Shown here: positions 3,735 to 61,000 of the stretch, piece by piece | Numbering within the stretch: position 1 is the stretch's first letter | Layout: every line of letters starts with the position of its first letter | From: Candidatus Peribacteria bacterium | Lineage (GTDB): Bacteria > Patescibacteriota > Gracilibacteria > Peribacterales > Peribacteraceae | Reading direction: 5' to 3' | NCBI GenBank assembly: GCA_023038255.1 | Contig: CP082927.1 | Location: 446,146-510,145, forward strand | DNA: 64,000 nt | Made by a program: the position numbers and the translations under genes | Notes under the pieces: model-generated | What the model was told of the DNA's origin: nothing | Seen by the model: only the letters and a program-made list of their open reading frames with translations | The model's database searches: none

Positions 3735-3744
3735 AAATCCATTA

Positions 3745-3773
3745 ATTATAGCAGAAACAGCGTTTTGGCGCAA
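3745..3773 (-). promoter_or_regulatory. promoter of the pilin-like gene pair
   Basis: The minus strand reads TTGCGC-N17-TATAAT with a TGc extended -10 (TGCTATAAT). The -10 ends 10 nt before ATG 3734. Confidence 0.5.
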
Positions 3774-11649: not shown

Positions 11650-11770
11650 GAACAAGGGGGAAGAGGCTTTTCAGTTCATATCTTAATCACAATGGTGCAG
11701 AGAAACTATATGCGGCAAAAAAGAGACTTTGCACAGTGATCATTTTTTGCTCTCTTGCTAGGATGCATGC

Positions 11771-22789: not shown

Positions 22790-22805
22790 AAAAGAGGGAG
22801 AAAAA

Positions 22806-22833
22806 TTGACTCCCTGAAAAATGGTACTAGTAT
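22806..22833 (+). promoter_or_regulatory. promoter of the orphan operon A-D
   Basis: TTGACT-N16-TAGTAT, 26 nt before ATG 22860. Confidence 0.45.
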
Positions 22834-22859
22834 CGCATACTTTCTTTCCCTTTTCTCTT

Positions 22860-24077: not shown

Positions 24078-24119
24078 GCCAAGTCCTAGCGCAAAACTTG
24101 TCATTTTTTAATTATTGTG

Positions 24120-24148
24120 TTGAAAAATAACTTAAAAAGTGTTATAAT
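24120..24148 (+). promoter_or_regulatory. promoter of gene B, predicted leaderless
   Basis: TTGAAA-N17-TATAAT with a TGt extended -10. The -10 ends 7 nt before ATG 24156. Confidence 0.55.
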
Positions 24149-24155
24149 TTCAATC

Positions 24156-25304: not shown

Positions 25305-25325
25305 AACAGATGTCCAAAGAAGCTC

Positions 25326-25354
25326 TTCCGCAAGAAGGCGTTTTTTGGTATACT
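25326..25354 (+). promoter_or_regulatory. promoter of gene C, near-leaderless
   Basis: TTCCGC-N17-TATACT with a TGG extended -10. It ends 10 nt before ATG 25365. Confidence 0.45.
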
Positions 25355-25364
25355 ATTAAGATTT

Positions 25365-28220: not shown

Positions 28221-28225
28221 TACAT

Positions 28226-30616: not shown

Positions 30617-30631
30617 TGAATATGTAAAATT

Positions 30632-30660
30632 GGACGGAATGCTTCATAAGCATTCCGTCC
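30632..30660. terminator. 13-bp perfect hairpin between convergent genes D and E
   Basis: GGACGGAATGCTT-cat-AAGCATTCCGTCC. The U-tracts are weak on both strands. Confidence 0.6.
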
Positions 30661-30710
30661 GTTAGATTGTTGATCGATCAAAATTGAACGCATTTCGCCC
30701 CTGCTTCAGC

Positions 30711-31301
30711 CTAAAAGGCCGTATAGAGACTGTCTCGGGCTTTCAGGCCTTTGGTTGCATCGGCGTTGTAGTGATACCAGGCCTTGCCTCTTCTCGCCGG
30801 TATCACCAATTTGTCAGTGTCGCCGGGAACTTCGATCTGAATGATGATTTTGTCCGGTTCTGGAGCCGGAAGTGCAAAATTCAGTTCTTTTCCAGTGACC
30901 GCTGGTGGTGTGCCAGTCATAACAGGTGTTACCAGGAGTTCCGGCGGGTCAATGTCCGGTTGCTGCACAATGCTTGTCACCTTCAGGATTGAGTGAACGG
31001 CACCTGGGCAGATTGCACAGGCAAAAAACAATGTTCCTGCTGCAATCATGACCGCGCCGATCAATTCCTCGATTGACACATTTCCCGCATGAGACTCACC
31101 CTTACGGATGAGAACCCAGCCAGCGATGACCAATCCATAGCAAGCCAGCATGGTCATGATGAACTTTCCAAAGTCCACCGACTCCGATTTCGCTCGCCAG
31201 ACGGGCAACACTAGAAATCCAAAAAGGATCATTGCTACTGCCAGCAGGAACCAATCCAACCAACCCCATTGCACTCCGCCATTGTTTTGTGGTGCGCTCA
31301 T
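30711..31301 (-). CDS. membrane protein E (196 aa), three TM helices plus a C-terminal soluble domain
   Basis: The ORF has a GAAGGA Shine-Dalgarno-like motif about 9 nt upstream. Three hydrophobic helices. No family recognised. Confidence 0.65.
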   Translation of the reverse strand: MSAPQNNGGVQWGWLDWFLLAVAMILFGFLVLPVWRAKSESVDFGKFIMTMLACYGLVIAGWVLIRKGESHAGNVSIEELIGAVMIAAGTLFFACAICPGAVHSILKVTSIVQQPDIDPPELLVTPVMTGTPPAVTGKELNFALPAPEPDKIIIQIEVPGDTDKLVIPARRGKAWYHYNADATKGLKARDSLYTAF

Positions 31302-31458
31302 ACTTCTCGTCCTTCATTCTAATTCGGCTATCCACATCACATTGAAACACGCGTCCAACGTTGATGTGAAAAATCAATCTAACTAATATTATAAAATATA
31401 CTCTATAAATAGTCAATAAGCTTTATAACCCCAAAATAGGGCATTTGAACCTGCAATA

Positions 31459-31487
31459 TTGCTCAATTTCGGGAAATTTGCTATAAT
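31459..31487 (+). promoter_or_regulatory. promoter of cassette F-G
   Basis: TTGCTC-N17-TATAAT (TGCTATAAT), 18 nt before ATG 31506. Confidence 0.55.
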
Positions 31488-31505
31488 AATGAGAAAACCT
31501 GACAT

Positions 31506-31838
31506 ATGACATCCACAACAAAAAACCCGCCGGCACTCACAGGGGAAGAGATGTACGACATGATTATGGAACGCATTGAACCCGATCTCACAACAAAAAT
31601 GCTCCCGCAACTCGATGCTTTGTATAGTTACGAAACACCGGAGCAGCGTGCAGCGCGTGAGGAGTGGTACACAAAAGTGTTTGCACAGTTTGAAATCGAA
31701 TACGCACGCTTCGCGAATGGTATGAAAAATTACTACACAAACATCCGCAAGAAAGCACTCTCGATGGTTCGTGCAGTAAAGGAAGATGCAGAAAAAGTCA
31801 GTACAACGTCCATTGAAGAATCCATTCAGAATTCGTAA
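31506..31838 (+). CDS. small helical protein F (110 aa), paralog of M at 46866..47186
   Basis: It has its own promoter (31459-31487). It aligns along its length with M (GEEMYDMIMERIEPDLTT vs GQEIYDAIMAGIEPELTT; tail SIEESI vs SIESSL). Confidence 0.75.
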   Translation: MTSTTKNPPALTGEEMYDMIMERIEPDLTTKMLPQLDALYSYETPEQRAAREEWYTKVFAQFEIEYARFANGMKNYYTNIRKKALSMVRAVKEDAEKVSTTSIEESIQNS

Positions 31839-31843
31839 CTCTT

Positions 31844-34800
31844 ATGCACACACGTTTCCGCACACAGGCTGCAACATTCCGCACAGGCGAGCGGAGACTT
31901 CTTGCGCTTGCACAAGATGTACCGCCCTTCAATTCTGCAGCAATGGGGGAGGTACCGGAAACAATTAAAGATTTGAAGACCCCGGAATTCGAGCAGAAGA
32001 TCTTGAATCTTCTCAAGAGTGCGGATGAGGATGCGAAGATTGTGAAGGCGTGCAGAACAGAAGTTCTGAACCTGATTAAAAATGATCCATACTGGAAAAC
32101 TCTTGATGAACGCGAAAAAAGAAAAATTCTCGAAGCTTTCCCAAAGAGAAAAATCGACTTCATGGAATTTGCTGTCGATAATAATTTCCTGGCAGCCGAA
32201 GCATCACTCGAGCTGAAAGAATTGTGGGAACAGCGTCCGTCTCATGTGCATACATATGCAGATACCGTTACAAAAGTAACATATCTTCCGGATGGAATGG
32301 AGATGAGCACGTTTGAAGAATTGGTGCAGAGATGGGAGAAAGTGAAGATGGATCTCGCAAAAACATTCCGTGGTTATAACACTAACAAGAACACACCTCC
32401 GGATGTTTTGGAGGCAAGAGCAGTGGCTACAGCAGCGCAGCAGGCGATGCAGGCTGAACTAGCAGAAAAACTGGGAGCGGACTGGTCTGTCAGAATCGCG
32501 GAATATAAATCCAGAAAGACGCTCGACAGACGTGCGCAGATTCTGAAGAAAGAAGAGATTGGCAGACAGGAAGATGAAGCGCGCGGGATCAAGCGCGGTG
32601 GTCAGAATACGGTTGAGCCATGGGATGCAGAAATCCAGCGCGGCCTCAGAAATTCACAGCGTCGCAATGACAATCCTCATTCCAAATACGGAAGAGCGGC
32701 TGCAAAATTGCGCGAGAATGACTTCGTCGATAACGGGCAGATTCCAACCTACGAAGTAAAATTCAATCCGAAGCTGCGTGTGAAAAGTTTCGATTCGAAA
32801 ACAGGGACCTACAGAGACCGGACCGCAGAACGCAATGAGTTTATGAAGGGAAAGGAAATGGATTATTCACAGAATCCCAACGGTGAGCCACTGGGTTCCA
32901 GAAAGCGTCCGGCAAAAGTAACATCCCGCCCGGCTATGTTCGGTCCGGGAACAGTGAGCAGTCAGGGGCATGATGATCTGGTTCGCCAGTCGACGTCTCA
33001 TCTGGATACGGATGTGCAGAATAAGCTGCGTGCGGAGGCGGGCAGCCGTGCATATCAGCAACTTCGTAAGGATATTATTAACTTGGACAAAGAATATCCG
33101 AATGCAGATGAATCACAATCGTTTACCGTGTTGCAGGATTTCATCCGTCGTGGTGAATATCAGAAGGCTATCGATCAGATCGGTATTCTCAGACGTGAGC
33201 TGAAGCAGATGAACTCGCTCACTACTATTGGGGATAAGGTCAATATGCAGGCGCAATCACTTGATGTGGAAGACTCACCGTACTTTACGGTGAACGTCAA
33301 AAACATGCTGACCGGGAAGACGTATTCATTCAAGCCCCAATTGGTCCTGAGTACGAATGAGGCATCAAATGATGCTGCAACTGTGCAGTCACTGTACGCA
33401 TCAGAAGGTGTCGCCATCCGTTTTGATCGCATGGGTGACAGAATAACGGAATCCAATCAGAAAAAAGTAAGCAGTATGGCGATTGATCTTACCAATCCGG
33501 ATAGTAAATATTTTACTGTCACCACCAACTCGCGTAACAATAATAATGCACTCGAACTCGGTAATCCTGCATTGAAGCCCGCTCCGTACGATACTGGTGC
33601 ACCGGAAAATGAGCCTGTCGGAAACACCCGCAAAGTCACATTGGATTTTTCCAAAGGAATTCCGAGAAGCATTTCCATCATCAATAAAACAAAGCAAAGC
33701 AAAGACGGGAATGCAGATTCTTTCACCGGAAGTCAGCTGGAAGGCTTGGCAGACGGTGCATCACTCAGAGGAGGAGTGGCAGGTGTGACAATCCGGAAAG
33801 AAGGAGATGCATATACAATGTCTCTGGACAATGCATCGCAGTATTCTGTGAGGGAATTGGGAGCAGGAGTAGGCACAGATTACAAAGATATTTCGAATAC
33901 CATTCCGGGCCTGAACCCGGGCGCTCCGTTGCAGCGCAGCATGCCAAGGCCGGCTCCGGCACGCTCAGCAGCAATGCCGTCCATGGAGCAGCAGGAAATT
34001 GTAGATCCTACCATGCGTTCGTTTAATGTAACTTTCACAAGTGGCCTTCCGTTTGGACTGAATATCAGCAACAACACGACAAAAAAAGCTACAACATTTT
34101 TTAATGATGAACTGAAGACTTTGGATACCGGTGCCATTTTAACCAATCCGGATATTGGTGTGACGATTCAGAAAGTGAATGGCCAATATCGCGTGTCGCT
34201 TAAGAAAGGGAACCATTTTGAAATTATCAGAGTCAATAGTCCAAATGGCACAAACAGGGATGATATCTCGCGTTATATTCCTGGCTTGAACAATGGTATT
34301 CCCGATCCTGCAGCTACACAGACGCAAACATCACCAACGCCTGCGCCGACGAATCAGGTGCCAACTATCCAGCCAAGAACGACGCCGGCAACCCGCCCCG
34401 CCCCGCTCCCGCAGCTTGATCCGTTGCCCCAGCAGCAAGCTCCATTTGAGGGTCCACCTGCTACAACGCCCGAGGCACCATTGAGCCCTCCACCCGTTCA
34501 GCGCGCACCGGAAACAGTACAAAATGGTCCCACGCAGCAGGAATTTACTGCACAGAGAGATGAGATTATTGCAAAAACAAATGTCCTTGTGCGTCGCATG
34601 AACACGTATAAAGGGAAAGAATGGATGGAGTATACCAACAGATTCCGGAACAATATCCAGCTGCGTATATTTAATTATGATCCGCAGAACCGCCTGCTGA
34701 ATAATGGCAGACGCACGAATGAATGGAATCTGGAGCAACTGAAAAAAACGTTTGATGTGTATGCACCGTCTGCAGAAGCACGGATGAATGAATGGGATGA

Positions 34801-35383
34801 ACAGAATGCAGCGAAGAGTCTGCCGCCTGATTTCCCCGAGACAGCTGTTGAGCGTCCGGCACCGGCAGCAAGTCCTGCTGCAGGTACACGACCTAAGACA
34901 AATGTGGAAAAAATCAATGAAATTACAGACAGTCTTCCGGCAGTTACCCAGACACCGTCAGCCACTCCGGCACCTAAATCTAATGCAGATGCCATCAATA
35001 GAATTGCAGACGATCTCCCAAAAGTGCCTCAGGCTCCAGAAGCTGCTCCGTCTACTGCCCCCAATGGTGCAGGGGCCATCGATGAGATTACCAATAATCT
35101 TCCGAAACCTTTGGAAGCAAAGCCAGAAGCAACAGAAGCGAACGATGCAAAGGCGATGGAAAAACTGAAGAACGAATTCGATGATCTTCTTGTAAAGGCG
35201 ACAACAGAAGTAGAGCGTCTGACGACAATAAAATATGCAAATATTAAAGAGGTTGAAGCATTAATGCAGACTCTGAAAGATGCCAAAAACAATGCGGCCA
35301 CCGTTGATGATATGACAGGCATCATCGGCGTGCTTAACGATGCTCTGAATGACATGAAAAAAGAAAAAGGTGACGCAAAATAA
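31844..35383 (+). CDS. giant orphan protein G (1179 aa) with internal tandem domains of about 100 aa and Pro-rich segments
   Basis: Starts 5 nt after the stop of F; an alternative start is ATG 31943 (MGEVPETIK). Tandem repeat RKVTLDFSKG...GVTIRKEGDAY...IPGLNPGAP / RSFNVTFTSG...GVTIQKVNGQY...IPGLNNGIP. No signal peptide. Confidence 0.8.
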   Translation: MHTRFRTQAATFRTGERRLLALAQDVPPFNSAAMGEVPETIKDLKTPEFEQKILNLLKSADEDAKIVKACRTEVLNLIKNDPYWKTLDEREKRKILEAFPKRKIDFMEFAVDNNFLAAEASLELKELWEQRPSHVHTYADTVTKVTYLPDGMEMSTFEELVQRWEKVKMDLAKTFRGYNTNKNTPPDVLEARAVATAAQQAMQAELAEKLGADWSVRIAEYKSRKTLDRRAQILKKEEIGRQEDEARGIKRGGQNTVEPWDAEIQRGLRNSQRRNDNPHSKYGRAAAKLRENDFVDNGQIPTYEVKFNPKLRVKSFDSKTGTYRDRTAERNEFMKGKEMDYSQNPNGEPLGSRKRPAKVTSRPAMFGPGTVSSQGHDDLVRQSTSHLDTDVQNKLRAEAGSRAYQQLRKDIINLDKEYPNADESQSFTVLQDFIRRGEYQKAIDQIGILRRELKQMNSLTTIGDKVNMQAQSLDVEDSPYFTVNVKNMLTGKTYSFKPQLVLSTNEASNDAATVQSLYASEGVAIRFDRMGDRITESNQKKVSSMAIDLTNPDSKYFTVTTNSRNNNNALELGNPALKPAPYDTGAPENEPVGNTRKVTLDFSKGIPRSISIINKTKQSKDGNADSFTGSQLEGLADGASLRGGVAGVTIRKEGDAYTMSLDNASQYSVRELGAGVGTDYKDISNTIPGLNPGAPLQRSMPRPAPARSAAMPSMEQQEIVDPTMRSFNVTFTSGLPFGLNISNNTTKKATTFFNDELKTLDTGAILTNPDIGVTIQKVNGQYRVSLKKGNHFEIIRVNSPNGTNRDDISRYIPGLNNGIPDPAATQTQTSPTPAPTNQVPTIQPRTTPATRPAPLPQLDPLPQQQAPFEGPPATTPEAPLSPPPVQRAPETVQNGPTQQEFTAQRDEIIAKTNVLVRRMNTYKGKEWMEYTNRFRNNIQLRIFNYDPQNRLLNNGRRTNEWNLEQLKKTFDVYAPSAEARMNEWDEQNAAKSLPPDFPETAVERPAPAASPAAGTRPKTNVEKINEITDSLPAVTQTPSATPAPKSNADAINRIADDLPKVPQAPEAAPSTAPNGAGAIDEITNNLPKPLEAKPEATEANDAKAMEKLKNEFDDLLVKATTEVERLTTIKYANIKEVEALMQTLKDAKNNAATVDDMTGIIGVLNDALNDMKKEKGDAK

Positions 35384-43779: not shown

Positions 43780-46770
43780 ATGTGCCCGAATATCCCCTCC
43801 GCCTCACCGCAGTCACCTGAGGACATTGCTCAGGCCAAGCAGCGTGAAGAAGAAAAGGTGCAGCGTGAACTGGATGAAAAGCGGGACATGCTTTCCATGG
43901 ATATTCTGCAGAACGTCACGACGCAGATTGTCACGATGGAAGAGGAAATTCGCGTAAAAAATGATGCACTACAAAAAGCGATCACACAGCGACAGGGGTG
44001 GACGCAGGATGCAGTGATTTATGCAAAGAAAGATGCCATTGTGCAGACACTCGAACAAGAGCTCGCAGGTGTCCGTACCAAACTCGACACACTGAAAAAT
44101 CAGCAGGGGATTATAAAAGGGCATATTTCATTCATCTATGAAAAAATGCCGAAAGGCAGAACCGATATCAGTGCATCGGATCTCAAGCATATCATCTGGC
44201 ATCCGACCATGAGCAGAGGGAAGGCAGTAGAATCCTCATCGCCAGTACCCGGAGCCGGAACCATTCTCCGCGAAAAAGTGGACGGCAAAGAAGGGGAGTA
44301 TATTTATACATGTCTGGCAGAAGACGGATCAGATGCGTATTTCAGAGTCTATGCACCGGGTCAGGTGCGCGAGGCCGAAACACAGACCGCAGATGGCAGG
44401 CCGATTGCTGTGGAGCAGGAAAAGGCGCTTGGAGTCTTGGATATTCTGAACAAGCCGCGTGAAGAATGGCGGCAGGGAATGCTAGCGTTAGTGAAAGACC
44501 CGAAGAATGCACAGGAATTGCAGGAGTGGGCAACGCAGGAAATGCCGATGGATGGCGGAAATGCGCTCGATTTCCAGAAAGAACTGTTGTCGGTCATTCT
44601 CGAGAAGAACGCAGCCATCAGCGGAGAAATCATGCGCGTCTGGAAGGAGCGTCTCGATGATCCTGCGGACGTGCGGAGAAACATCGATACCATCAAGCGT
44701 TTGTCGCTGCTGGGAAACATTCCGTTCGGTTGGGCGCTCGATGTCTATGAAAAGAAGGTGCAGACAGATCCGCTTACAGCAAAAGAACTCGGCACATCAC
44801 TGATGGGGGATGCGCTGCTTGCGGCGAATAATCCGACTGACAAAGACATGCTGATGGATCTGAAAAGGCGCTTTGAATCGGCAAAGAATCCGTTCATGCG
44901 TGCGCAGCTTCTGCTGATGCTCTGCGAGAGTGATCTTGTATTTGAACAGACGGTTTCGTCTGATGACCTCTGGAATGCAGCCATGGTGAATGAATCCGTA
45001 TGCACCGCTGTCCTTCCTGTTTTCATCAAGCGCAAAGATCCGCGTACGGTCGAACTTCTGGAAAAAATCATGAAGAGCGGCACGCATTTTGAAGCGGATC
45101 TTGTGCATTTCACGAGAGTGATGCTGGACGCCACGCGCTATGTTCTGACATTGCCGGATGCAGAGAAGCAGAAAATCATAAAACTCTGTGATGATTTGAT
45201 GGGATCGGATACTGTTTTGCATCCGCTTTTTCTCAAAATGTTTACCGTTCTGAATAAGCCTGGAGCTGCACTTGAAGTCGCTGGTATCGGCGATAATCAC
45301 GAGATGATACTAAGAATGCAAATGCTTCTTCAGGCCAATGAAGAGCTTGATGCGCGCATTGCTGCATTGAAAAACATACCTGCTGATCAGCGAATGCAGA
45401 TGATGAAGGCGCAGGCGCCGCTTCCCGGAAACCAGCAATTGCTCATCCTGAAAAACCAGGCTGATGTGGAAGTGGATCAGGTGGCAAATGATATTGCAAA
45501 AGATGCTGCAGAGCTGATTCACAGATTGCAGAAGCCCGATGCACCGAATCTGCTGCCCATTCCAAACGATGTTGTCACCGATGCAGAAAACGCCATTCAG
45601 GATGCCTTCAAGAGCATTGCATGGGATGACACGATGTTTGAACCGATTGTGATGAACGCGCCGGGAGTATATGAAGAAAATCTTCTGCGGGAGCAACTGG
45701 CACCGCGTTTGAAAAAAATATTTGAAAACGGACGCATGAAAAAACTGGGAATCGACGATACAATGTGTGAAAAATGGGTCGACCTGATTGTCTCGGACAA
45801 GAAGAATCAGGCTGCAGTGCACACGGTGATGCAGGCAAGAATGGTGTCAGAAATTGCCAATGGAAATAAGCTTCTTGAGGAAAAACTGGTCGATCACCTG
45901 CTGCAGAATTTTGAGAAAGGACAAGGGGAAAAACAATTTGCCAATGTGTTCGGAAAAAACTTTGCACTGAAATCCAAACTGCTCTTCGCACAGAATACCG
46001 CGCATCAGGGGATATATGCCGGTGGATCGGTTCTTCCGGTAGCTGCTGCAGCTGCTCCCGTTGCGGCCACCGTCGTTGCGGCAAAAATAACCGGATCAGC
46101 CAAACCGCTTGAAGAGGCGAGCGTTGCCCCCAAAGAATCTTCTGAGAAAGAAGTGGAAAAAATATCACCCGCCTTAAAGCCGCTGCTGGAAAATACAATA
46201 ACTGTCGTGAATGACGGCATTCAGTATTCCCGTGGAACGGTTGATGGATACGATGTGGTGATCGCGGAATCCGACTTTTCCACCCGCGCGTTCCTGCAGA
46301 TGAAAAATGAAATGCTCGAACTACCGACACCGGATGTAAGCGGACTCAATACTGTCGTGATTGATCGCGGCAATCAGACGACGGTGTTTTATAATCTGGA
46401 AAAACAGCAGATCGAAGATCCGTACGACAAAAAACAGAACGACATTCTGAGCCGCATTTTTGAAATCGATACCGCGACATCCGTCGTGCACGATAAGCAG
46501 ATCCAGTACATCAGCGACGGAATGCATCTCCTGTTCCGTGGTGCCGCAGACACAATCCGTGCAGCGCACCCGCTTCGTGTGCTCGGAATTATTACCGATG
46601 ATGACAAGATCGACGAAAAACGTGCCGATCAGTTCCGCGAACTCTTCCATTATCACATGGATGAAATCCGCGACTGGACATTTGCCGATATGCAGGCTCT
46701 CACAAAGCTGTGGGAGAAAGAAGACAAATTCGTCTTCGCTCCGCTGATCGACCTGCGTGGTGAGGCCTAA
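43780..46770 (+). CDS. giant orphan protein L (996 aa)
   Basis: Long ORF with its own promoter (43728-43756). Coiled-coil N-terminus, helical-repeat-like middle, Ala-rich hydrophobic hairpin GGSVLPVAAAAAPVAATVVAAKI. No signal peptide. Confidence 0.8.
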   Translation: MCPNIPSASPQSPEDIAQAKQREEEKVQRELDEKRDMLSMDILQNVTTQIVTMEEEIRVKNDALQKAITQRQGWTQDAVIYAKKDAIVQTLEQELAGVRTKLDTLKNQQGIIKGHISFIYEKMPKGRTDISASDLKHIIWHPTMSRGKAVESSSPVPGAGTILREKVDGKEGEYIYTCLAEDGSDAYFRVYAPGQVREAETQTADGRPIAVEQEKALGVLDILNKPREEWRQGMLALVKDPKNAQELQEWATQEMPMDGGNALDFQKELLSVILEKNAAISGEIMRVWKERLDDPADVRRNIDTIKRLSLLGNIPFGWALDVYEKKVQTDPLTAKELGTSLMGDALLAANNPTDKDMLMDLKRRFESAKNPFMRAQLLLMLCESDLVFEQTVSSDDLWNAAMVNESVCTAVLPVFIKRKDPRTVELLEKIMKSGTHFEADLVHFTRVMLDATRYVLTLPDAEKQKIIKLCDDLMGSDTVLHPLFLKMFTVLNKPGAALEVAGIGDNHEMILRMQMLLQANEELDARIAALKNIPADQRMQMMKAQAPLPGNQQLLILKNQADVEVDQVANDIAKDAAELIHRLQKPDAPNLLPIPNDVVTDAENAIQDAFKSIAWDDTMFEPIVMNAPGVYEENLLREQLAPRLKKIFENGRMKKLGIDDTMCEKWVDLIVSDKKNQAAVHTVMQARMVSEIANGNKLLEEKLVDHLLQNFEKGQGEKQFANVFGKNFALKSKLLFAQNTAHQGIYAGGSVLPVAAAAAPVAATVVAAKITGSAKPLEEASVAPKESSEKEVEKISPALKPLLENTITVVNDGIQYSRGTVDGYDVVIAESDFSTRAFLQMKNEMLELPTPDVSGLNTVVIDRGNQTTVFYNLEKQQIEDPYDKKQNDILSRIFEIDTATSVVHDKQIQYISDGMHLLFRGAADTIRAAHPLRVLGIITDDDKIDEKRADQFRELFHYHMDEIRDWTFADMQALTKLWEKEDKFVFAPLIDLRGEA

Positions 46771-46817
46771 AACGCCTGCAAAAGCACCTCAATTACCTTT
46801 TAGAAAATGTCTTATAA

Positions 46818-46846
46818 TTGCGTAAAAATACAAAATTTGGTATAAT
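46818..46846 (+). promoter_or_regulatory. promoter of cassette M-N
   Basis: TTGCGT-N17-TATAAT (TGGTATAAT), 19 nt before ATG 46866. Confidence 0.55.
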
Positions 46847-46865
46847 AGAGAGAAAACAAAAAACT

Positions 46866-47186
46866 ATGGATGACACACAAATCCCCAGCGGCCAGGAGAT
46901 CTATGACGCCATTATGGCAGGTATTGAACCAGAGCTGACTACTGCAGGACTGGAGACGCTGGAGCAGGTGTATGCGAATGAATTAGAGCAAGACAAGGCA
47001 GCCCGCGCCACACGGTATGACACTGCATTTCTGGAATACGACAAACAGTTCCAGGCATACAGCGATCAGTGGATAGACAGTCTGCGCTCGTACAAACGCA
47101 CGGCGGTCTCCTCACTCGAAAAAGAAAACCGTGAAACGGAAGACAAGGCCGCGCTCGATTCTATCGAATCTTCTCTCTCAGCATGA
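46866..47186 (+). CDS. small helical protein M (106 aa), paralog of F
   Basis: The track start at 46818 overlaps the promoter (TTGCGT-N17-TATAAT, 46818-46846), so ATG 46866 (MDDTQIPSGQEIYDAIMAGIEPELTT) is preferred. Its stop overlaps the start of N (ATGA). Confidence 0.75.
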   Translation: MDDTQIPSGQEIYDAIMAGIEPELTTAGLETLEQVYANELEQDKAARATRYDTAFLEYDKQFQAYSDQWIDSLRSYKRTAVSSLEKENRETEDKAALDSIESSLSA

Positions 47187-49321
47187 TGCATGTCTGTCGT
47201 TCCCATTGGCAGGTGACACAGCGCGAGCGCCGCGAAATTTTTCAGTTGCCCAATGTTCCCCAGAATGCACCGCAAAATGCGCCGGCTGCCACGCCGCAGG
47301 CTGCGCCGAATGTTCCGCCGAATAATCCGAACGCTGCAAAAAATATCGCGAAAGATAAAATTGTGAAAGCGGAAGCGACGGGTAACAAAATCCGGTCCAT
47401 GAAGCAGAGCATGGATGCTGCGCTGGCACAGATCGCGAATATCGGAAAGCCTCCTGCAGCCCCAGTTGCAGGCGCCCCGGACGCACTGACCGCAGCAGTA
47501 ACATCCGTCGATGCCATCAAAACCGCATCCAATATCAATACCCTTCCTGCAGATGCGCTGACCGACATGATGCAGAGCGCACGCACACTCGGTCCGGAAG
47601 CAGGGGAAGTGTGCGATAAAATTCAAGACGCCATGACACAGTTGCAGGCTGCTCTTACGAACGAGCCTGATGCGGTGAAACAGAAGCAGATTACGGACAT
47701 GGCAATACTGCTGGAAAATAATGCAAAACTTATTCTGGCCGATCTCCTCACGCCCGATGTAAAAACCGGTGCGCCGAAAGGTATCGGGTCCCTTTTTGGA
47801 ACAATGCAACCGGAAGAAGCTGCAAAAATCACTGATGCGGCGAATGCAAGCCCTACCATGACCAGCATTAATGATTCATCCCTGTCCGAAGACGAGCGCA
47901 GCAAACTGATCGGTAAAGTGATGTGTGACCATGGCGTGACAATCGAGAAAGATGCCAGTGGCCAGTACATTGCAGTTGCCCCGCTGAGCCCGTTTGCAAA
48001 ATTTCTGAATCAGATCAACGGTATTTTCAGACTGCTTGGATTTGTGAAGACGCCGGTGAAGGGTGCAGAGACGAATCCATCCACTCCATCCAACGGTCCG
48101 CAGACGACGCTGAATCAGGCAGAACAGGATGCCATTAAAAAGAACATCAAAGATCCAGCCTTCGGCATGGCCACTGAAAAGGGAAAAGCAAAGACCGCAA
48201 AAGCGACTGCTGAAAAGGCACTCTACGGTATGGCTCTCGCTCCCAATACGCCTCCTCCCGTGCCGGCGCCGGGCAGCTTGAAAGGACAGCTCACTGCTCT
48301 GACCGCAGAGAAGACAAAGCTCGAAACAGATATCGCCGCTCTCAAGGCTGCAAACCCTCCCGATCAGAATGCAATTACCACAGAAACTGGAAAGCTGAAT
48401 GTAAAGATGTCTGAAATCACCGCGAAGGAAGCGGAGATAAAAGTGCAGGAAGAGATTGTGAAAAAAGAGGACGTAAAAATGAAATACATTGATGACTTGC
48501 AGAAAGCCGCGACAGATTCTGTGACTGCCATGACAGAAGTGCAGACATACATCACGACGCTCAATACGAAACGCACGTACAAAAATGCAGACTCAAAAAT
48601 TGTAGGCGATGCATTGTCGGGCATACAGATAGATGGTCCGGGCAATGATCTCAGCATTCGCTGCCTGAATGTAAATCTGTCAGCATGGCAGGCGATGCAG
48701 GATCTTGCTGCGCAGAAATTCGGCATTGTAAAAACTGACATGGATCTCACGCAGCCGGATATCATGAAAGATCCGGAAAAATGTCTTGCTGCACTCAAAG
48801 TCATCAAACAGAGATTGGCGGATCATGAAAAGAAAATAGATAGCCGCATCGGAGCATTGACCGCTGTCGGTGCATCAAATGACGAAGCAGCAGATGTGGC
48901 AAAAATTGAAATGAATGTACCCGGTATCCAGTTTGAGTATAAAAACGCACAGTGGTCATTTGCCACTGACCCGGGCGCAAATGCGTACGATGCCTATTTA
49001 AAATCCGGCGAGGACAATGTTACAGCGGTCTTAAAAAACTACATGGACCAGAAAATACAGAGCGACCCTCTTTCTCCTTTGAGCGTGTCTTTTTTGGATA
49101 AGGCTCTGGAATATGAAAATAGTATCAATCCAAACACTGTTGCCATACGGCAATATAAGCAACTGATAAAAGATATTCCTCTCCTGAAGCAAAATGTCAG
49201 TGTGTCCACACCCATGGTAAAGGTAACTGATGTTCCGGGTTTGAAGGATGCAATAGAGAAGCATCCTTTGTTTACAGGAAATACACTTGATGCAGACTTG
49301 AAGACGAATATGGGGATGTAA
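47183..49321 (+). CDS. giant orphan protein N (712 aa)
   Basis: The start overlaps the stop of M by 4 nt. N-terminal NVPQNAPQNAPAATPQAAPNVPPNNPN low-complexity region. HGVTIEKDASGQYIAV module shared with G. No signal peptide. Confidence 0.8.
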   Translation: MMHVCRSHWQVTQRERREIFQLPNVPQNAPQNAPAATPQAAPNVPPNNPNAAKNIAKDKIVKAEATGNKIRSMKQSMDAALAQIANIGKPPAAPVAGAPDALTAAVTSVDAIKTASNINTLPADALTDMMQSARTLGPEAGEVCDKIQDAMTQLQAALTNEPDAVKQKQITDMAILLENNAKLILADLLTPDVKTGAPKGIGSLFGTMQPEEAAKITDAANASPTMTSINDSSLSEDERSKLIGKVMCDHGVTIEKDASGQYIAVAPLSPFAKFLNQINGIFRLLGFVKTPVKGAETNPSTPSNGPQTTLNQAEQDAIKKNIKDPAFGMATEKGKAKTAKATAEKALYGMALAPNTPPPVPAPGSLKGQLTALTAEKTKLETDIAALKAANPPDQNAITTETGKLNVKMSEITAKEAEIKVQEEIVKKEDVKMKYIDDLQKAATDSVTAMTEVQTYITTLNTKRTYKNADSKIVGDALSGIQIDGPGNDLSIRCLNVNLSAWQAMQDLAAQKFGIVKTDMDLTQPDIMKDPEKCLAALKVIKQRLADHEKKIDSRIGALTAVGASNDEAADVAKIEMNVPGIQFEYKNAQWSFATDPGANAYDAYLKSGEDNVTAVLKNYMDQKIQSDPLSPLSVSFLDKALEYENSINPNTVAIRQYKQLIKDIPLLKQNVSVSTPMVKVTDVPGLKDAIEKHPLFTGNTLDADLKTNMGM

Positions 49322-49340: not shown

Positions 49341-49369
49341 TTGCATTGAAATGCCCGCATTCGTATAAT
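49341..49369 (+). promoter_or_regulatory. dedicated promoter of rpoC
   Basis: TTGCAT-N17-TATAAT, about 113 nt before ATG 49483. Confidence 0.55.
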
Positions 49370-49482
49370 GCGTCCACATTTCCGGTGTTTCCCGCTTATT
49401 TGAGACGAATAAGAAACGGGGGCAACGGAGTTTCGTGCGTGAATTTTTCCGCAGAAATAAGCCATTTTTCCCACTTTCTCAC

Positions 49483-52400
49483 ATGCCGACAACTGCTACG
49501 TCCGCAACCGATTCCTTCGACGCCGTCGCCCTCAGCGTTGCCAGTCCGGATGATATCCTGACCTGGTCCCGCGGTGAGGTGACCAAAGCCGAAACCGTGA
49601 ACTACCGCACACAGCGTGCCGAGCCGGATGGCCTCTTCTGTGAGCGTATTTTCGGTCCGACCAAGAACTTCCAGTGTTTCTGTGGAAAGTACAAAGGAAT
49701 CCGTTATAAGGGTGTTATCTGTGAAAAGTGTGGTGTCGAAGTCACGCGCTCTATCGTTCGCCGTGAACGTATGGGCCACATCAACCTGGCTGTTCCCATC
49801 GCGCACATCTGGTTTTTGCGCTCCAGCCCGTCCCGCATCGGACTTCTGCTCGATCTCCCGATCAAGACCCTCGAACAGATCGTCTATTTCGCAGCATACG
49901 TCGTGATCAGCGTGAACGAAGATATGAAGACAGAAGCGGAGAAGGAACTCAGCGCCAGCATGGAAAACCGCCGCAAGCAGGTCGTACGCGAGTATGAAGA
50001 GGCAAAGAAGCAGCTCACAGAAAGCAATGCCACCCGCGCCCAGCTTGATGCGCTTGATAAAGAGTATGCAGAACGTCTCGAATCTCTGAAGCTGAACCAC
50101 AAAGAAGCGCTCGATGATCTGAAAAACCTCCACACCGGAGGTGTGCTCTCCGAGCTCAAATTCCGTGAAATGAACATGAAGTTCGGTCACGTGTTCCGCG
50201 CCGGTACCGGTGCCGAATCGCTCCGCGAAGTCATCCTTAATATTGAACTCCAGCAGCTCGCAACCGATCTTCAGGCCGAGCGTGAGAAGTCGTCGGGTCA
50301 GAAACTCAAGAAAGTCATGAAGCGCATGAAGTTCGTGAACAGCATTCTCCAGGCAGGCATCGACCCGTCCTGGATGATCCCGACACGCCTCCCTGTGCTC
50401 CCTCCTGATCTGCGCCCGATGGTGCAGCTCGACGGAGGACGCTTCGCTGCATCTGACCTCAACGATTTGTACCGCCGCGTCATCAACCGTAACTCCCGTC
50501 TCAAAAAGCTGATGAGCATTGGTGCGCCGGAAGTCATCTGCCGCAACGAAAAGCGTATGTTGCAGGAAGCGGTCGATACATTGCTGAACAACTCCGCTCG
50601 CGGAGGCAAGACACTGTTTACCGCAGGAGATCGCCGCAAACTCCGCTCTCTCTCCGATATGTTGAAGGGAAAGCAGGGACGCTTCCGCCAGAACCTCCTT
50701 GGAAAGCGCGTGGACTACTCCGGACGTTCTGTGATCGTCGCCGGTCCGCACCTCAAGCTCAACCAGTGTGGTCTGCCGAAAGAAATGGCGATGAAACTCT
50801 TCAAGCCGTTTGTGATCGGAACCATCATCCGCCGCGAACTCGCACACAACGTGAAGGCTGCCGAGCGTCTCATTCAGGACGGTGGCAAAGAGGTGTGGGA
50901 TATCCTCGAAGAAGTCATTAAGGACAAGTACGTCCTCCTCAACCGCGCGCCGACACTGCACCGCCTTGGTATCCAGGCCTTCAAGCCGACTCTGATCGAA
51001 GGTCTCGCGATCCAGCTGCATCCGCTCGCCTGTACGGCCTTCAACGCCGACTTCGACGGAGACCAGATGGCTGTTCACGTGCCGCTGTCCGACAATGCGC
51101 AGCAGGAAGCACGCAGACTGATGTCCGCATCCACAAACGTGCTGAAGCCGTCCGCTGGTGAGCCGATCATCAACCCGGTGCAGGACATGGTGCTCGGTTG
51201 TTACTTCCTCACACAGGTGCACGATGGCAAGAAGGGCGAAGGGATGATTTTCTCCACCCAGGACGAAGCATTCCTCGCATTTGACTCCGGCGTGGTCGAT
51301 CTGCAGGCAAAGATCAAGGTCCGTGTTCCTGCTGAAGATGGAAAGACCCAGATTATCGACACATCCGTCGGACGCCTCAAATTTGATGAAATCATGCCGG
51401 AAGGAATGGGCCGCACGACCAAGCCGATGACGAAGAAATATCTGAGTAACCTCATCGCAAAAGCACTCGAACTCGTCGGCGAAGAGCAGACGACACAGTT
51501 TGCAGACCGTATTAAGGACGTTGGCTTCAAGTTCGCAACCATGTCCGGTGTGTCCATTGCGGCATCCGACATTTTGGTGCCGGTTGAAGCAGAAACGCTT
51601 GTGGCGGAAGCAAACGTGAAGATCAACGATATGACGAACTTCTACTCGAAGGGATTCATCACCGCTGATGAAAAATACAACCACGCTATCCGCATCTGGT
51701 CCCAGACAAAGAACGAAGTGTCCAGCGCGATGATCCGCGACTTCCTCAAGGAACCGGAAAACGACATCACCTACGTGATCGACTCCGGCGCTCGTGGTAA
51801 CTGGGGACAGGTCACCCAGCTCGGAGGTATGAAAGGACTCGTTGCCAACCCGTCCGGACGCACCATCGAACTCCCGATCCAGAGCAACCTCAAGCACGGA
51901 TTCTCCGTTCTTGAATACTTCATCGCGACACACGGAGGACGCAAAGGAAAGTCCGACACCGCTCTCAAGACTGCGGAAGCCGGTTACCTCACACGCCGTT
52001 TGGTCGATGCAGTGCAGGACATCATTATCCGCGAAGAAGATTGTGGATGTCTCACCAGCCATAAGATCACGACAGCAGATTCCGAGCGCATCGGTGAAAA
52101 ATTCGAGAGCCGCATCTTCGGACGCACCCTCGGAGAAGACATCGTTAGCGGCGGCAAGACGATTGCGACCCGCAACCAGGAAATCGACGCCGATCTCATC
52201 GATCTTTTGCACGAACATAAGATTGAAGATGTACTCGTGCGCTCCGTGATGACGTGTAAGACCAAGCAGGGAATCTGTGTCCGCTGCTACGGCCGCGATC
52301 TCGGTAACAACAAGACTGTCAAAATCGGAACACCGGTCGGTATCATCGCTGCCCAGTCCATCGGAGAACCGGGAACGCAGCTCACCATGAGAACCTTCCA

Positions 52401-53355
52401 CATGGGAGGAGTCGCCGAAGGAGCCGACATCACGCAGGGTCTCACCCGCGTGGAAGAACTGTTTGAAGCACGCAACCCGCGCTCCGCAGCCCAGCTCGCT
52501 GATATTTCCGGAAACGTGAAAGTCAGCCACCAGGGCGGAAAGACCACGGTCACCATCCACGAAGAAGTGCCGGGTGAGGATAACTACCACCTCCAGGCAG
52601 GATTCGAAGTGGTCGTGGAGAAGGGTGAAAAGGTTGCAGAACGCACCATTCTCGCAAAATCCCGCTACGACAAGTCCGTCATCCGCGCTGTTGCAGCCGG
52701 AGAAGTGACTGCTATCGGCGACGGTGAGATCAAGGTGAAGCACTACGAACTCCAGGAAAAGGCCTACCAGTTCGGTGGCCGTGAATCGCTCATTGTGAAG
52801 ACCGGTTCCAAGGTTTCTGTGGGTGATCCGCTCAACGTTGGACACTTTAACCTCCAGGATCTCCTCGAAAAGAAGGGTGTCTACGCTGTGCAGAACTACG
52901 TCGTGCAGGAAGTGCAGCACATCTACGCATCCCAGGGTCAGACTATCAACGACAAACACCTGGAAATCATTGTCCGCAAGATGTTCTCCAAAATCCGCTG
53001 TTCCGATGCCGGTGACACGAACTTCCTGCCGGGCGAAGTGGCCGACAAGGGTGAAGTGGACTACGAAAACGAGCGTTTGGCTGCCGATACGAAGGGAAAG
53101 GCAAAAGCCGCTACCTACGAGCAGCTGCTCCTCGGTATCACCCGCGTGGCTCTCGCAACTGATTCCTGGCTCTCCGGTGCTTCCTTCCAGGAAACCATCC
53201 GCGTGCTTGTGGACGCTGCCACCACCCGTAAGATCGATATGCTCGCAGGACTCAAGGAAAACGTCATTATCGGTCGTTTGATCCCGACGGGTGAGGTCTA
53301 CCGCAAGCGTTTTGCTCTCGAGCAGGGTCTGGAAGAGCCTGCAGATGAGATATAA
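49483..53355 (+). CDS. rpoC: DNA-directed RNA polymerase subunit beta-prime
   Basis: The N-terminus ...SPDDILTWSRGEVTKAETVNYRT, the zinc-binding region CFCGKYKG..CEKCGVEV and the catalytic NADFDGDQMAVHVP are all present. ATG 49483 is preferred to the track GTG at 49435. Confidence 0.98.
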   Translation: MPTTATSATDSFDAVALSVASPDDILTWSRGEVTKAETVNYRTQRAEPDGLFCERIFGPTKNFQCFCGKYKGIRYKGVICEKCGVEVTRSIVRRERMGHINLAVPIAHIWFLRSSPSRIGLLLDLPIKTLEQIVYFAAYVVISVNEDMKTEAEKELSASMENRRKQVVREYEEAKKQLTESNATRAQLDALDKEYAERLESLKLNHKEALDDLKNLHTGGVLSELKFREMNMKFGHVFRAGTGAESLREVILNIELQQLATDLQAEREKSSGQKLKKVMKRMKFVNSILQAGIDPSWMIPTRLPVLPPDLRPMVQLDGGRFAASDLNDLYRRVINRNSRLKKLMSIGAPEVICRNEKRMLQEAVDTLLNNSARGGKTLFTAGDRRKLRSLSDMLKGKQGRFRQNLLGKRVDYSGRSVIVAGPHLKLNQCGLPKEMAMKLFKPFVIGTIIRRELAHNVKAAERLIQDGGKEVWDILEEVIKDKYVLLNRAPTLHRLGIQAFKPTLIEGLAIQLHPLACTAFNADFDGDQMAVHVPLSDNAQQEARRLMSASTNVLKPSAGEPIINPVQDMVLGCYFLTQVHDGKKGEGMIFSTQDEAFLAFDSGVVDLQAKIKVRVPAEDGKTQIIDTSVGRLKFDEIMPEGMGRTTKPMTKKYLSNLIAKALELVGEEQTTQFADRIKDVGFKFATMSGVSIAASDILVPVEAETLVAEANVKINDMTNFYSKGFITADEKYNHAIRIWSQTKNEVSSAMIRDFLKEPENDITYVIDSGARGNWGQVTQLGGMKGLVANPSGRTIELPIQSNLKHGFSVLEYFIATHGGRKGKSDTALKTAEAGYLTRRLVDAVQDIIIREEDCGCLTSHKITTADSERIGEKFESRIFGRTLGEDIVSGGKTIATRNQEIDADLIDLLHEHKIEDVLVRSVMTCKTKQGICVRCYGRDLGNNKTVKIGTPVGIIAAQSIGEPGTQLTMRTFHMGGVAEGADITQGLTRVEELFEARNPRSAAQLADISGNVKVSHQGGKTTVTIHEEVPGEDNYHLQAGFEVVVEKGEKVAERTILAKSRYDKSVIRAVAAGEVTAIGDGEIKVKHYELQEKAYQFGGRESLIVKTGSKVSVGDPLNVGHFNLQDLLEKKGVYAVQNYVVQEVQHIYASQGQTINDKHLEIIVRKMFSKIRCSDAGDTNFLPGEVADKGEVDYENERLAADTKGKAKAATYEQLLLGITRVALATDSWLSGASFQETIRVLVDAATTRKIDMLAGLKENVIIGRLIPTGEVYRKRFALEQGLEEPADEI

Positions 53356-57826: not shown

Positions 57827-58098
57827 ATTGACAGATATAAAAAATGTTTCTCATTTTCCCTCTTCTGTCTGGGGAAGTTGTACGTAAATGCTCAAATAGA
57901 GAGATGTTTTTTCTGTACAGGAAAGCCCTTTTACTCATTTTTCTCCGGCAAATATCATTGTACCCTCCCTTCATATTTTGCATAGAAAACTATACAGACA
58001 CTGCTTCAAAACAATAAATAGTGCGGTTTTATTTGCTTTTAGGGTTTTATTTGCGTAGCATGCCGAATTGTATTGCTATCCTTCCCACCTTTCTCCTT

Positions 58099-61000
58099 AT
58101 GGAAAGATTTATCAAGCACGCCAAGCGGAGCATCTCAACATTCTCGCTGGCGGCTCTTTCGCTAAATATTTTACTCGGATCTGCGGTAGCAGCTTTGCCG
58201 GTTTTTTCGCCACAGGCAAATGCCGTAGGCACAACCCTGCTGGCCACTGCAGTCGGAAATTACGATCAATGGAGTGCGAGTGCGGGAAGCAAGGTTGCTG
58301 CTGTGGGCACGAATGATGCTGTTTTTATCAGTGAGGCGACAAATACAGAGAGGCAGAGCTTCACATTTGCATCTGCAGGCATTCCCACTGGCGCCCTTGT
58401 TAGCTCCGTCGTCTTGAATGTTCTTGCAAAGGAAACAGGAGGAAGCAGTGCGTCTATGAAATTATTTGCAGAAGACGGGCTTACAGCCGGAGATCGCGAT
58501 GTCGGAAGTACGAACAATCTGACAAGCAGCTATGTAAACTACACGAAAACCTGGAATGAAAATCCCTTTACGAACAATGACTGGACTGCAGCGGAGGTGA
58601 ATACATGGACAGTGAACTTTGGTGTCGAAAAAAGTTCGGCCAATGCGGATGTTGCCAATGTGACCTACATGGAACTGGTCGTGAATTACACAGTTCCAAC
58701 CTGTAATGCACTGAGTGCTACCATTTCGGGTTCGGGAATTATCAACGGTACTGCCGGTGATGATGTGATTGTTGGTTCCAGCGGTGTGGATACCATCACA
58801 GGAAACGGGGGAAATGACACGATCTGTGCGCTGGGGGGGAACGATTCTGTCACAACAGGAAACGGTAATGACTGGATTGATACAGGTGACGGCACAAACA
58901 CTGTTGTTGCCAACGGAGGGAATAACACAGTATTTGGCGGAAGCGGTAACGATAACATTACAACTGGAAACGGTAATGACACTATTGATGCGGGAGATGG
59001 AAGCAATGTAATTGTGGCAGGTGCGGGTGTGAATATGATCGACTCAGGAAACGGTAACGATACCATCACTACTGGAAATGATAACGACACCATTGTTGCC
59101 GGAGACGGAAGCAATGTGATTAATGCGGGCTCTGGCACAAACTCTGTCACAACCGGCAACGGTAATGACAGCATTACGACTGGAAACAACGATGACACAA
59201 TCGTCGCAGGTGCCGGTAGTAATACAATCGTCGCAGGTGCCGGTGTGAACTCTGTTACAACCGGTAATGGCAATGACGATATTACGACTGGAAACAATGA
59301 CGACACTATCATTGCAGGAGATGGAAGTAATGTGATTGACGCGGGATCGGGTGAAAATACCGTGACCACTGGAAACGGAAACGACGATGTCACCACTGGA
59401 AACGGAAACGATACTATCGTTCTTGGGAATGGGACGAACGGCACAGCTGGTGATCGTATTCAATCAGGTGCAGGAAATGACTCGATCACAGGTGGGTCCG
59501 GTAATGATCACTTCGATGGCGGAGATGGTATGGACTATTGTGATCCTGTCGGAACAGGGGGAAATAATACAACAATCAACTGTGAAGCCGTGGGCGATCA
59601 GGCACTCGTCACTATTGTCAAAGATGCACAGCCGGATACTGCGGATGACTTCCTCTTTACAGGCGATATCGGTGCATTTGCACTCGATGACGACGCCGAC
59701 GGAACACTCCCGAACAGCACAACTGTCACGATGGCTGCCACAGTGGGCGGCACGGTCCGCTCAATCACGGAATCTGTGGCTACAGGTTGGCAACTCCAGA
59801 GCATTACCTGTACTCCGGATGCCGGAACATCAGGAAATGTCGGTTCTCAGACAGCAACAGTTCTTTTGAATAAAGGAGATCATATCACTTGTACATTCGT
59901 GAACACTCCTGCTCCTGTTACGACAGTCAGAGTGACAATCGCTAAATATATGAACGGCGTTCATGCAACCGCTGGTAACACAGACAATGCATCGTTCAAT
60001 ATGACCGCTGTGTACAACGCATCCAACATCGGATCGGGTTCCGATCCTTATGTCATCAGTGCAACCGGAAACGGTACGCCTGAGGCATACGAAGCACAGA
60101 CGATTGCACTCGCATCCGGTGCGGACTACAGCACTTACGAAACCATCAGTGCGCCATGTACCGATGCAACACCGTTTGAATTGGTTGGATATTCCACAGG
60201 AGATTCTTTGGCAGCTGCCGAGGCAGCGCCTGTCAGCATGACAGTGCCCGCTTTCACGGGGCTGACATCTGATAAGTTTGTGATTGTCTGGAATGAAACC
60301 TGTCCTCCGGTCCCGACGCATCTGACACCGGCAGACGGCAGCACGCTGACAACCGCACAGCTCGACAAGATCGACTGGAGCGATGTGGCAACGCCTGCAT
60401 TGCCGATGACGTATTTCTACGAAGTGGCAACGACAGATACGAGCACCAATCCTGATGGGTCCTTCGTGAACCCGGTGTATGAATCTGCAGCACTGTCCGA
60501 CTCCGAAATTGTGACAGCAGGTACAGGAGATGGAACCTACCACTGGCATGTCCGCGCCGTTGACGCTGCAGGAAACAGCAGTGCATGGTCGGCACCTTGG
60601 ACGGTGACAGTCAGCAACGCCGCAGTGGATACCACGCCGCCGGTCGTCGAGATTCTCGGGTACCGCAATCAGACAAGTGGAACCTATGATAGCGGTCCTG
60701 CTATCCAGGCCTGTGGCACCACTACCGCCTCTTCCTTCATCGCCTTTGAGTGGCAGGAGGTTGGCACCGATGTGTCTCAGCCGTTGAGCTACGAATACAA
60801 GATTCTCAGCGGTCCAGCCGGTGTTGGATACACACAGGTACACTCTGGCACACACCACAACGGCGGTATTCCTGCAGAAGGAACGTATACCATCCAGATC
60901 ACCCCGACCGATGCAGCATCGAATGTCGGAACACCTGTTACCTGCACCATGACCTATGATGCAGACTATGTGGCCCCTGTTGCCTGTAATGTGTCTGATA

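Follow-up and report, generated by a model that had tools for sequence, protein, structure and literature searches.

A predicted two-gene module of small acidic proteins and partners with a conserved N-terminal motif in Candidatus Peribacteria

Introduction

Type III chaperones possess an alpha/beta fold, type IV secretion signals are usually C-terminal, and we know of no ESX machinery in the phylum from which the DNA studied here originates. The small proteins of the Lap/LXG pairs (Firmicutes type VIIb) and of the AesA/AesB-type pairs bind the N-terminal region of their substrate and target it for export (PMC13622651). Patescibacteria have a type IV secretion system which is essential and includes VirB2-like pilins (PMC12857230). 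The Peribacteria genome paper describes large extracellular cysteine-rich proteins, type II secretion and type IV pili (PMC4736985).

The stretch of DNA analysed here, referred to as the window, comprises 64,000 nucleotides of a Candidatus Peribacteria genome, and its genes include tuf, rny, mutY, rpoC, rpsL, rpsG and fusA, which mark it as bacterial chromosome. A sequence-only reading of the window had claimed that two small proteins, M and F, are paralogs, that each is encoded directly upstream of a giant orphan gene and behind a TTGC-N-TATAAT promoter, and that they carry a motif which could not be assigned to any family. Set beside the systems named above, the M/F module is, as judged from the searches presented here, a phylum-specific two-gene module which is composed of a small-protein family and a partner tag and is drawn from novel sequence families.

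Results

Paralogy and gene anatomy of M and F

The ORFs of M and F were both found at the coordinates given in the sequence-only reading. In BLASTP, M and F were identical at 29 of 97 positions (30%), with 59% positives and an E value of 1e-14, which confirms their paralogy. The alignment contains a single gap of one residue near the C-terminus. Aligned with a scoring matrix, the pair scored significantly, and the 40-residue stretches and the SIE-S tails quoted in the sequence-only reading fell into register as it had described. The Y-D-x-I-M-x-x-I-E-P-[ED]-L-T-T core and the S-I-E-x-S tail blocks were recovered by MAFFT as well. When 42 window proteins were compared all against all by BLAST, three significant pairs were found and M/F was the sole one with a small protein; the other two were EF-Tu/EF-G and two pilin-like proteins.

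The start of M was placed at the ATG at 46866, because the longer open reading frame from a TTG at 46818 would take in the promoter-like site and because close homologs begin with MDDTQ or MEPL. The TTG start was therefore rejected. The stop codon of M overlaps the start of the 712-aa ORF (ATGA), while the 1179-aa ORF begins 5 nt after F. The AF2 model of M (pLDDT 86) is composed of three short N-terminal helices and one continuous helix of residues 41-105, and this 65-residue helix, as modelled, is unlikely to be stable alone.

An identical M protein is present on a 1.25-Mb metagenomic contig. Orthologs of F with 65-70% identity occupy syntenic positions in two related loci (L004 and L005). 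The F-like and M-like proteins form separate orthologous groups which are found together in the window genome, in a 647-kb contig and in an 830-kb contig, and a third, mfd-linked orthologous group of the small family is present in Peribacter riflensis. Since separate groups co-occur in the same genomes and a third group exists, the F/M duplication is old. M and F are, on the evidence of alignment and orthology, ancient paralogs in an undescribed family of ~110-aa acidic and predicted alpha-helical proteins. Positions of the module genes and of the sites discussed below are collected in Table 1.

Table 1. Genes and promoter-like sites of the module in the window.
Feature	Position	Strand	Description
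Motif-bearing protein	28226-30616	+	796 aa; MIYTLFQTGFNNPLREKRLMYNA; no small family gene ahead; motif HMM E 0.09, just above noise
Promoter-like site, F	31459-31487	+	TTGCTC-N17-TATAAT; stretch AAATTTGnTATAATA in common with the M site
F	31506-31838	+	110 aa, acidic, pI 4.9; orthologous group of the orphan gene cluster; family HMM E 4.7e-34
F partner	31844-35383	+	1179-aa hydrophilic orphan; motif MHTRFRTQAATFRTGERRLLALA; motif HMM E 2e-5
101-aa small protein	35457-35762	+	Acidic, pI 4.5; precedes the motif protein at 35765
Motif-bearing orphan	35765-38308	+	847 aa; motif MKHAHFSAGYSTTEKRLLAKQ; motif HMM E 6e-5
Promoter-like site, M	46818-46846	+	TTGCGT-N17-TATAAT, TG at extended -10; read in the sequence, putative promoter
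M	46866-47186	+	106 aa, acidic, pI 4.2, helical; rpoC-linked orthologous group; family HMM E 2.4e-37
M partner	47183-49321	+	712-aa hydrophilic orphan; motif ...HWQVTQRERREIFQL, then Pro/Ala/Asn-rich linker; motif HMM E 8e-7
Promoter-like site, rpoC	49341-49369	+	TTGCAT-N17-TATAAT

Promoter-like sites

The pattern TTGCnn-N17-TATAAT occurs in 4 copies in the window against 0.09 expected. Apart from the copies before M and F, one copy is situated upstream of rpoC and another at the listed start of a pilin gene. Because the pattern also precedes rpoC and the pilin gene, it is best taken as the general promoter type of the organism and not as a feature specific to the pair. The earlier observation of such a site before both small genes was correct.

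Size, spread and residue conservation of the small-protein family

A word-indexed search retrieved only 10 relatives of M and F. The alignment of these relatives was used as seed for a HMMER profile, and the exhaustive search with this profile yielded 910 representatives at 50% clustering, nearly all of 100-135 aa and 742 of them at E<=1e-10. The profile search which the sequence-only reading had proposed from the pair led to a large lineage-wide family and not to a housekeeping family. All family matches bearing an organism name came from Peregrinibacteria, Peribacteria or 'Patescibacteria group', and genome matches were obtained only from Candidatus Peribacteria (Peregrinibacteria, Candidate Phyla Radiation).

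Residue conservation analysis across 111 diverse members revealed ~20 near-invariant positions which are concentrated in residues 9-65. The conserved residues are G9, Y13, D14, M17, I20, E21, P22, L24, L32, Y36, E39, R47, R50, Y51, A54, F55, Y58 and E85. Along with these, a C-terminal [LI]-E is conserved in the same 111 members, and an aromatic stripe runs along the first half of the long helix. Membership of the family was defined by a profile match (alignment A3) together with the pattern Y-D-x-[IL]-M-x-x-I-E-P-[ED]-L ... L-x-x-x-Y-x-x-E ... R-x-x-R-Y-x-x-A-F. Both M and F carry this pattern and match the family HMM with the E values given in Table 1.

M and F found no match in Pfam (E<=0.1), NCBIfam or PHROGs and no significant match in PADLOC, where M gave a single sub-threshold match (E 0.007). 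None of the 111 family members scored above threshold against Pfam. Sequence search of PDB with the family profile and with a single sequence gave no match, and Foldseek of the M AF2 model against PDB returned nothing below E 5. The statement that the motif could not be assigned to a family is borne out by these sequence and fold searches. A phage origin was rejected, as no relative was found in viral contigs. In a term search, no mention of the family was found in the Peribacteria genome paper (PMC4736985). Over the range of these databases, the family is undescribed and lineage-wide, and M and F are two of its many members rather than an isolated duplicate.

Genes downstream of the family members

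Family loci were collected from encoding contigs, genomes and metagenomes, the metagenome scan being made with a 31-sequence subset of the 111-sequence alignment, and 30 loci were readable. A motif-bearing gene is located immediately downstream and on the same strand in 27 of the 30 readable family genes, and the gap between the family gene and its partner ranges from -14 to +20 nt, mostly about -4 to +6 nt. The position upstream of a giant orphan gene holds in the window, where the partners are of 712 and 1179 aa, but not across homologs, in which the partners span 172 to 1179 aa. The suggestion that homologs are always adjacent to very large ORFs likewise failed, since partners are as short as 172 aa and three family genes (L006, the second copy of L016 and L018) have no motif partner. 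The constant feature of the partners is a short N-terminal motif and not their size. At least three motif proteins (28226 in the window, and 12137 and 6079 in L034) have no family gene ahead of them, and the pairing of family and motif is hence not obligatory. The C-terminus of the 28226 protein is formed by Pro/Gly/Asn/Gln-rich repeats. Its ortholog in L034 also possesses the motif, and a 126-aa gene is situated ahead of the L034 copy.

The motif spans ~25 residues. One aromatic residue or two and a turn made of small residues come first; the invariant E-x-R is next, with two or three hydrophobic positions behind it and usually a low-complexity linker rich in Pro, Ala and Glu thereafter. Examples are MHTRFRTQAATFRTGERRLLALA, MKHAHFSAGYSTTEKRLLAKQ, MSTLIHHHRFQGASIREHRMIFQV and MLFHPTFKAEKEQRLIFQQGAP. 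A regular expression written post hoc matched 22 of 216 ORFs of >=150 aa from all loci; 18 of the matches lie directly downstream of a family gene, and one of the 22 is an apparent false positive. A motif HMM built solely from non-window loci ranked 47183, 31844, 35765 and 28226 above all others among 513 candidate N-termini of the window, with noise starting from E 0.2. The invariant Glu is encoded by GAG in 16 cases and by GAA in 16, and the invariant Arg uses all six Arg codons. Since both residues use all synonymous codons, the constraint on the motif is at the protein level, and conservation at the RNA level was ruled out as its cause.

The residue before the invariant Arg is R in ~9 of 32 partners, and K, H, Q, N, S, G, A or C in the others. 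Some partners therefore show an R-R-x-hydrophobic-hydrophobic core (ERRLIF, ERRLLA, RERREIF). A Tat signal was nevertheless rejected, as the twin arginine of the S/T-R-R-x-F-L-K-like motif is not constant and no hydrophobic h-region of 12-20 residues is present: the sequence after the motif is polar or Pro-rich, and the highest 19-residue hydropathy is <1.6 in all of the 22 partners. A Sec signal and a sortase substrate were rejected in the same 22 partners; they have no N-terminal hydrophobic signal, no 19-residue hydropathy window reaching 1.6, no TM segment and no LPxTG with TM anchor. With regard to a double-glycine leader, as in substrates of peptidase-containing (C39) ABC transporters, GG or GA was read 5-8 residues past E-x-R in ~8 partner N-termini, at varying spacing, and the window partners are devoid of it. 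The genes examined in the window and the loci included no ABC transporter.

Beyond the motif, the partners are not alignable across orthologous groups. BLAST and phmmer connected them within orthologous groups only, the one exception being the L016 partner, which was weakly linked (E 1e-6) to the M-type partner group, and the idea that the large partners form one family was dropped for this reason. The partners evolve faster than the small proteins. Within the same genome pair, the small proteins are 65-67% identical against ~38% for the partners, and the orthologs of the F partner in L004 and L005 share merely 28-38% identity. The 712-aa and 1179-aa partners have no match in Pfam or among PDB sequences. 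No toxin, nuclease or peptidase domain was detected in the 13 motif proteins scanned, and no Pfam domain in any partner scanned. The 22 partners examined are rich in Ala, Lys, Glu and Pro and have few Cys. The 712-aa partner was modelled by AF2 with a pLDDT of 59 (3 close sequences) as mostly helical, with residues 1-48 unstructured.

Genomic context of the module

The gene upstream of the family genes varies: it may be mfd or gyrA, but also a lipoprotein-like gene or an orphan of 996 aa. Linkage of the unit to mfd was seen in L010 and L031, and to gyrA in L012. In the window, L009 and L033, the unit precedes rpoC, and all three keep the order small family gene, partner, rpoC, rpsL, rpsG, small ORF, fusA. 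Inside an orphan cluster, it is found in the window, L004, L005 and L034. In the window, rpoC (49435-53355, + strand) has no rpoB ahead of it, and the M unit holds that place (upstream region 43319-49321). An open frame of 1187 aa (49396-52959, - strand) runs antisense to rpoC and is almost certainly a non-coding shadow ORF.

Several cassettes are present per genome, and tandem modules were observed in L005 (10001-17073), L016 and L023. One related genome has at least 5 motif proteins. In L034 (10340-15502), one family gene is followed by two motif proteins of 584 and 1121 aa, an arrangement suggestive of partner genes having been duplicated or split locally.

The 101-aa protein and the orphan cluster

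The 101-aa protein encoded at 35457 was compared with the family by hhalign, which gave a probability of 0.4% with 2 sequences and of 4.9% (P 0.008) with 3. It shares with the family an L-x-E-K-[YW]-x-x-E stretch and an A-E-S-L tail. The gene in L005 which is syntenic to it is a true family member, and orthologs of the 35457/35765 arrangement are present in L004 and L034. The 35457 protein may be a family relative that has diverged very far, or an analog by position.

The orphan cluster in which F resides (22000-38000) has 43-49% GC and a strong excess of A over T, against 51-55% GC in the housekeeping regions. The cluster is syntenic in three other genomes. This synteny counts against horizontal acquisition as the source of the lower GC, and the composition is better explained by amino-acid composition together with fast evolution. 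The cluster is headed in the window, L004 and L034 by a gene (19058-22789, + strand in the window) for a probable surface nuclease of 1243 aa, in which five lamin-tail domains and a staphylococcal-nuclease domain are combined with a hydrophobic signal at the N-terminus and a membrane anchor at the C-terminus. A 951-aa orphan (25365-28220, + strand), whose gene lies directly ahead of that for the 28226 motif protein, shows a lone C-terminal hydrophobic segment at 892-910 followed by a His/Gly/Asp-rich tail (…HGGHDDHGDDHGHGH); its L005 counterpart has a similar His-rich end.

Other features of the window

Two paralogs of 293 and 311 aa (1960-2841 and 2838-3773, both on the - strand) each have a C-terminal pilin domain of the VirB2-like kind known from type IV secretion: PF18895 was matched by the longer protein (E 1.5e-15) and NCBIfam NF045849 by the shorter one. 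The pair fits the type IV pilin clusters of Patescibacteria (PMC12857230). No linkage was found between the window pilin genes and the M/F module. A 121-aa zinc-ribbon-like protein (43319-43684, + strand; CPQCG…CDIC) is 85-88% identical in relatives, against ~40% for the neighbouring orphans, and looks like a conserved small housekeeping protein. Two large proteins are probably extracellular: one has cysteine-rich acidic repeats (8779-11655, - strand; TIGR02232), and the other, of 1709 aa (58021-63150, + strand), combines RTX repeats with a SpaA-like prealbumin-fold domain (PF24514) and with a lectin domain of the laminin-G/concanavalin-like kind. Both match the 'large extracellular proteins' described for Peribacteria in the genome paper (PMC4736985).

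Discussion

A possible escort of tagged cargo

The module combines a conserved small acidic helical protein, its coupling to a single cognate gene, a tagged, variable and Sec-less partner, and the presence of several cassettes per genome. Because this anatomy matches that of the type III chaperone/effector, VirE1/VirE2, PE/PPE and Lap/LXG pairs, we tentatively propose by analogy that the small protein could be an acidic helical escort or targeting adaptor and the partner its N-terminally tagged cargo. The module is nevertheless a member of none of these systems. This reading, with its putative binding, escort function and export, is a real possibility which falls somewhat short of an even chance. 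Each paralog opens a unit of two genes behind a putative promoter of its own, and the second gene, which overlaps it or follows within a few nucleotides, is translationally coupled to it. The small protein would act as a dedicated chaperone or targeting adaptor and bind the tagged N-terminus of its cognate partner by means of the conserved mini-domain of residues 9-65, the long amphipathic helix, or both. It would keep the partner soluble and deliver it to a Sec-independent route of export or envelope assembly. The Pro-rich linkers of the partners, of a kind seen in wall-spanning regions, and the acidic, helical nature of the small proteins are consistent with such an escort. Against it, no secretion machinery is linked to the module in the loci examined, Pfam, PDB and Foldseek searches revealed no resemblance of the small protein to a known chaperone, Ala/Lys/Glu-rich helical partners fit cytoplasmic coiled-coil scaffolds too, and three family genes and at least three motif proteins are unpaired. 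A wider form of the proposal, in which Peregrinibacteria would possess a Sec-independent targeting or export pathway with E-x-R-tagged substrates, the family as escort and its C-terminal tail as the recognition signal in trans, is unlikely.

Alternative explanations

The main rival, which we hold to be somewhat unlikely, is a structural complex that stays in the cytoplasm. In that case, the motif and the small protein would form the assembly interface of coiled-coil or disordered scaffolds, for example cytoskeletal or nucleoid/transcription-associated ones, and nothing would be exported. Such scaffolds would agree with partners that are Ala/Lys/Glu-rich, predicted to be mostly helical and devoid of Sec, Tat or TM features, and with the location of several units beside mfd, gyrA or rpoC. 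These housekeeping neighbours, however, vary by orthologous group, and the window units and rpoC each have their own promoter-like site. Variability of the observed extent between close relatives is also unusual for scaffold proteins, and Pro-rich linkers, like Pro/Gly/Asn/Gln-rich repeats, are found more typically in envelope proteins. The small protein could instead be itself a substrate, as EsxB or PE in type VII secretion, which pairs with the partner N-terminus and provides an export signal in trans by its C-terminal tail. Such an Esx-type co-secreted heterodimer is quite improbable. A small helical protein, the conserved C-terminal [LI]-E tail and a gene layout matching PE/PPE and Lap/LXG would all suit it, and small helical targeting factors encoded beside Esx substrates are documented (PMC13622651). 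Two of the 111 members even give weak matches to WXG100/Esx (PF06013; E ~1e-3, best E 0.0012), but these are few and do not reach the Pfam threshold, and neither M nor F has a match at E<=0.1. The W-x-G motif is absent, M having QWID and F having EWYT in its place, and the M AF2 model is not a helical hairpin. No FtsK-type ATPase of the EssC/EccC type was detected in the window or the loci examined, and none is mentioned in the secretion-system discussion of the Peribacteria genome paper (PMC4736985).

Tight gene coupling and the promoter-like site of each window unit would also be expected if the small protein regulates its partner, either as an autoregulator or anti-activator or as an upstream ORF for translational coupling. 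We assign a low probability to this explanation. No DNA- or RNA-binding domain or motif was found, the strong conservation of ~20 residues over 900 clusters argues for a folded binding domain, and the common N-terminal peptide of non-homologous partners, which is under protein-level selection, would be left unexplained. The hypervariable partners with conserved N-terminus and the several cassettes per genome, some in tandem (L005, L016, L023), recall polymorphic toxin or defence cassettes, in which the small protein would be the immunity protein or adaptor and the variable large protein the effector. This last explanation is very improbable. The 13 motif proteins have no toxin, nuclease or peptidase domain; no PHROGs match, no relative in viral contigs and no significant PADLOC match was found (M gave one sub-threshold PADLOC match, E 0.007); immunity genes are normally located downstream of the toxin gene; and the units are syntenic and vertically inherited.

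Significance of the module

Peregrinibacteria are uncultivated, have small genomes that consist in large part of orphan genes and are thought to be dependent on other cells; to our knowledge, little has been established on the making of their surface or on their dealings with hosts. The module joins many of these orphan genes, namely four large and two or three small proteins in the window. If, as in the escort proposal, the tag is a targeting signal, the set of cargo proteins could be listed from sequence, and the route of export or assembly would be distinct from the Sec, Tat, type II and type IV systems which are annotated in the phylum. If the export pathway is true, the motif would read out the surface or host-interaction repertoire of an uncultivated phylum. 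Even if the complex is cytoplasmic, the module would represent a well-defined and testable predicted protein-peptide interaction which is conserved in ~900 sequence clusters.

Comparison with known systems

The Tat pathway with its TorD/NapD-type chaperones resembles the module in the R-R-x-hydrophobic-hydrophobic core of some partners and in the operon-encoded small protein. In most partners, however, KR, HR, QR, SR or GR takes the place of RR. The CesT/SycE type shares with the small proteins a size of ~110 aa, a pI of 4.2-4.9 and adjacency to the substrate, traits which are not defining; the AF2 model of M is all-helical, with no alpha/beta fold, and no match to this type was found in Pfam or by Foldseek.

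The mycobacterial type VII PE/PPE pairs have in common with the module a ~100-aa helical protein encoded immediately upstream of a larger protein. The N-terminus of the larger partner is conserved and the remainder highly variable and often of low complexity, and several paralogous pairs are present per genome. On the other hand, there is no sequence or Pfam relationship between them, PF00934 and PF00823 being absent from the small proteins and their partners, and the partner tag of the module is of 25 residues against the 180-residue PPE domain, with no helical hairpin predicted. In the Lap/LXG and AesA/AesB-type pairs, small alpha-helical proteins are similarly encoded beside large polymorphic substrates. 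The module differs from Lap/LXG in having no LXG domain and no WXG100 membership, and it belongs to a different phylum. VirE1/VirE2 of type IV secretion and the type III class I chaperones have no homology to the module, but resemble it in the small acidic protein which is encoded directly upstream of, and coupled to, a single cognate substrate; in the type III class I case, the chaperone-binding region is, like the tag of the module, situated in the N-terminus of the partner protein.
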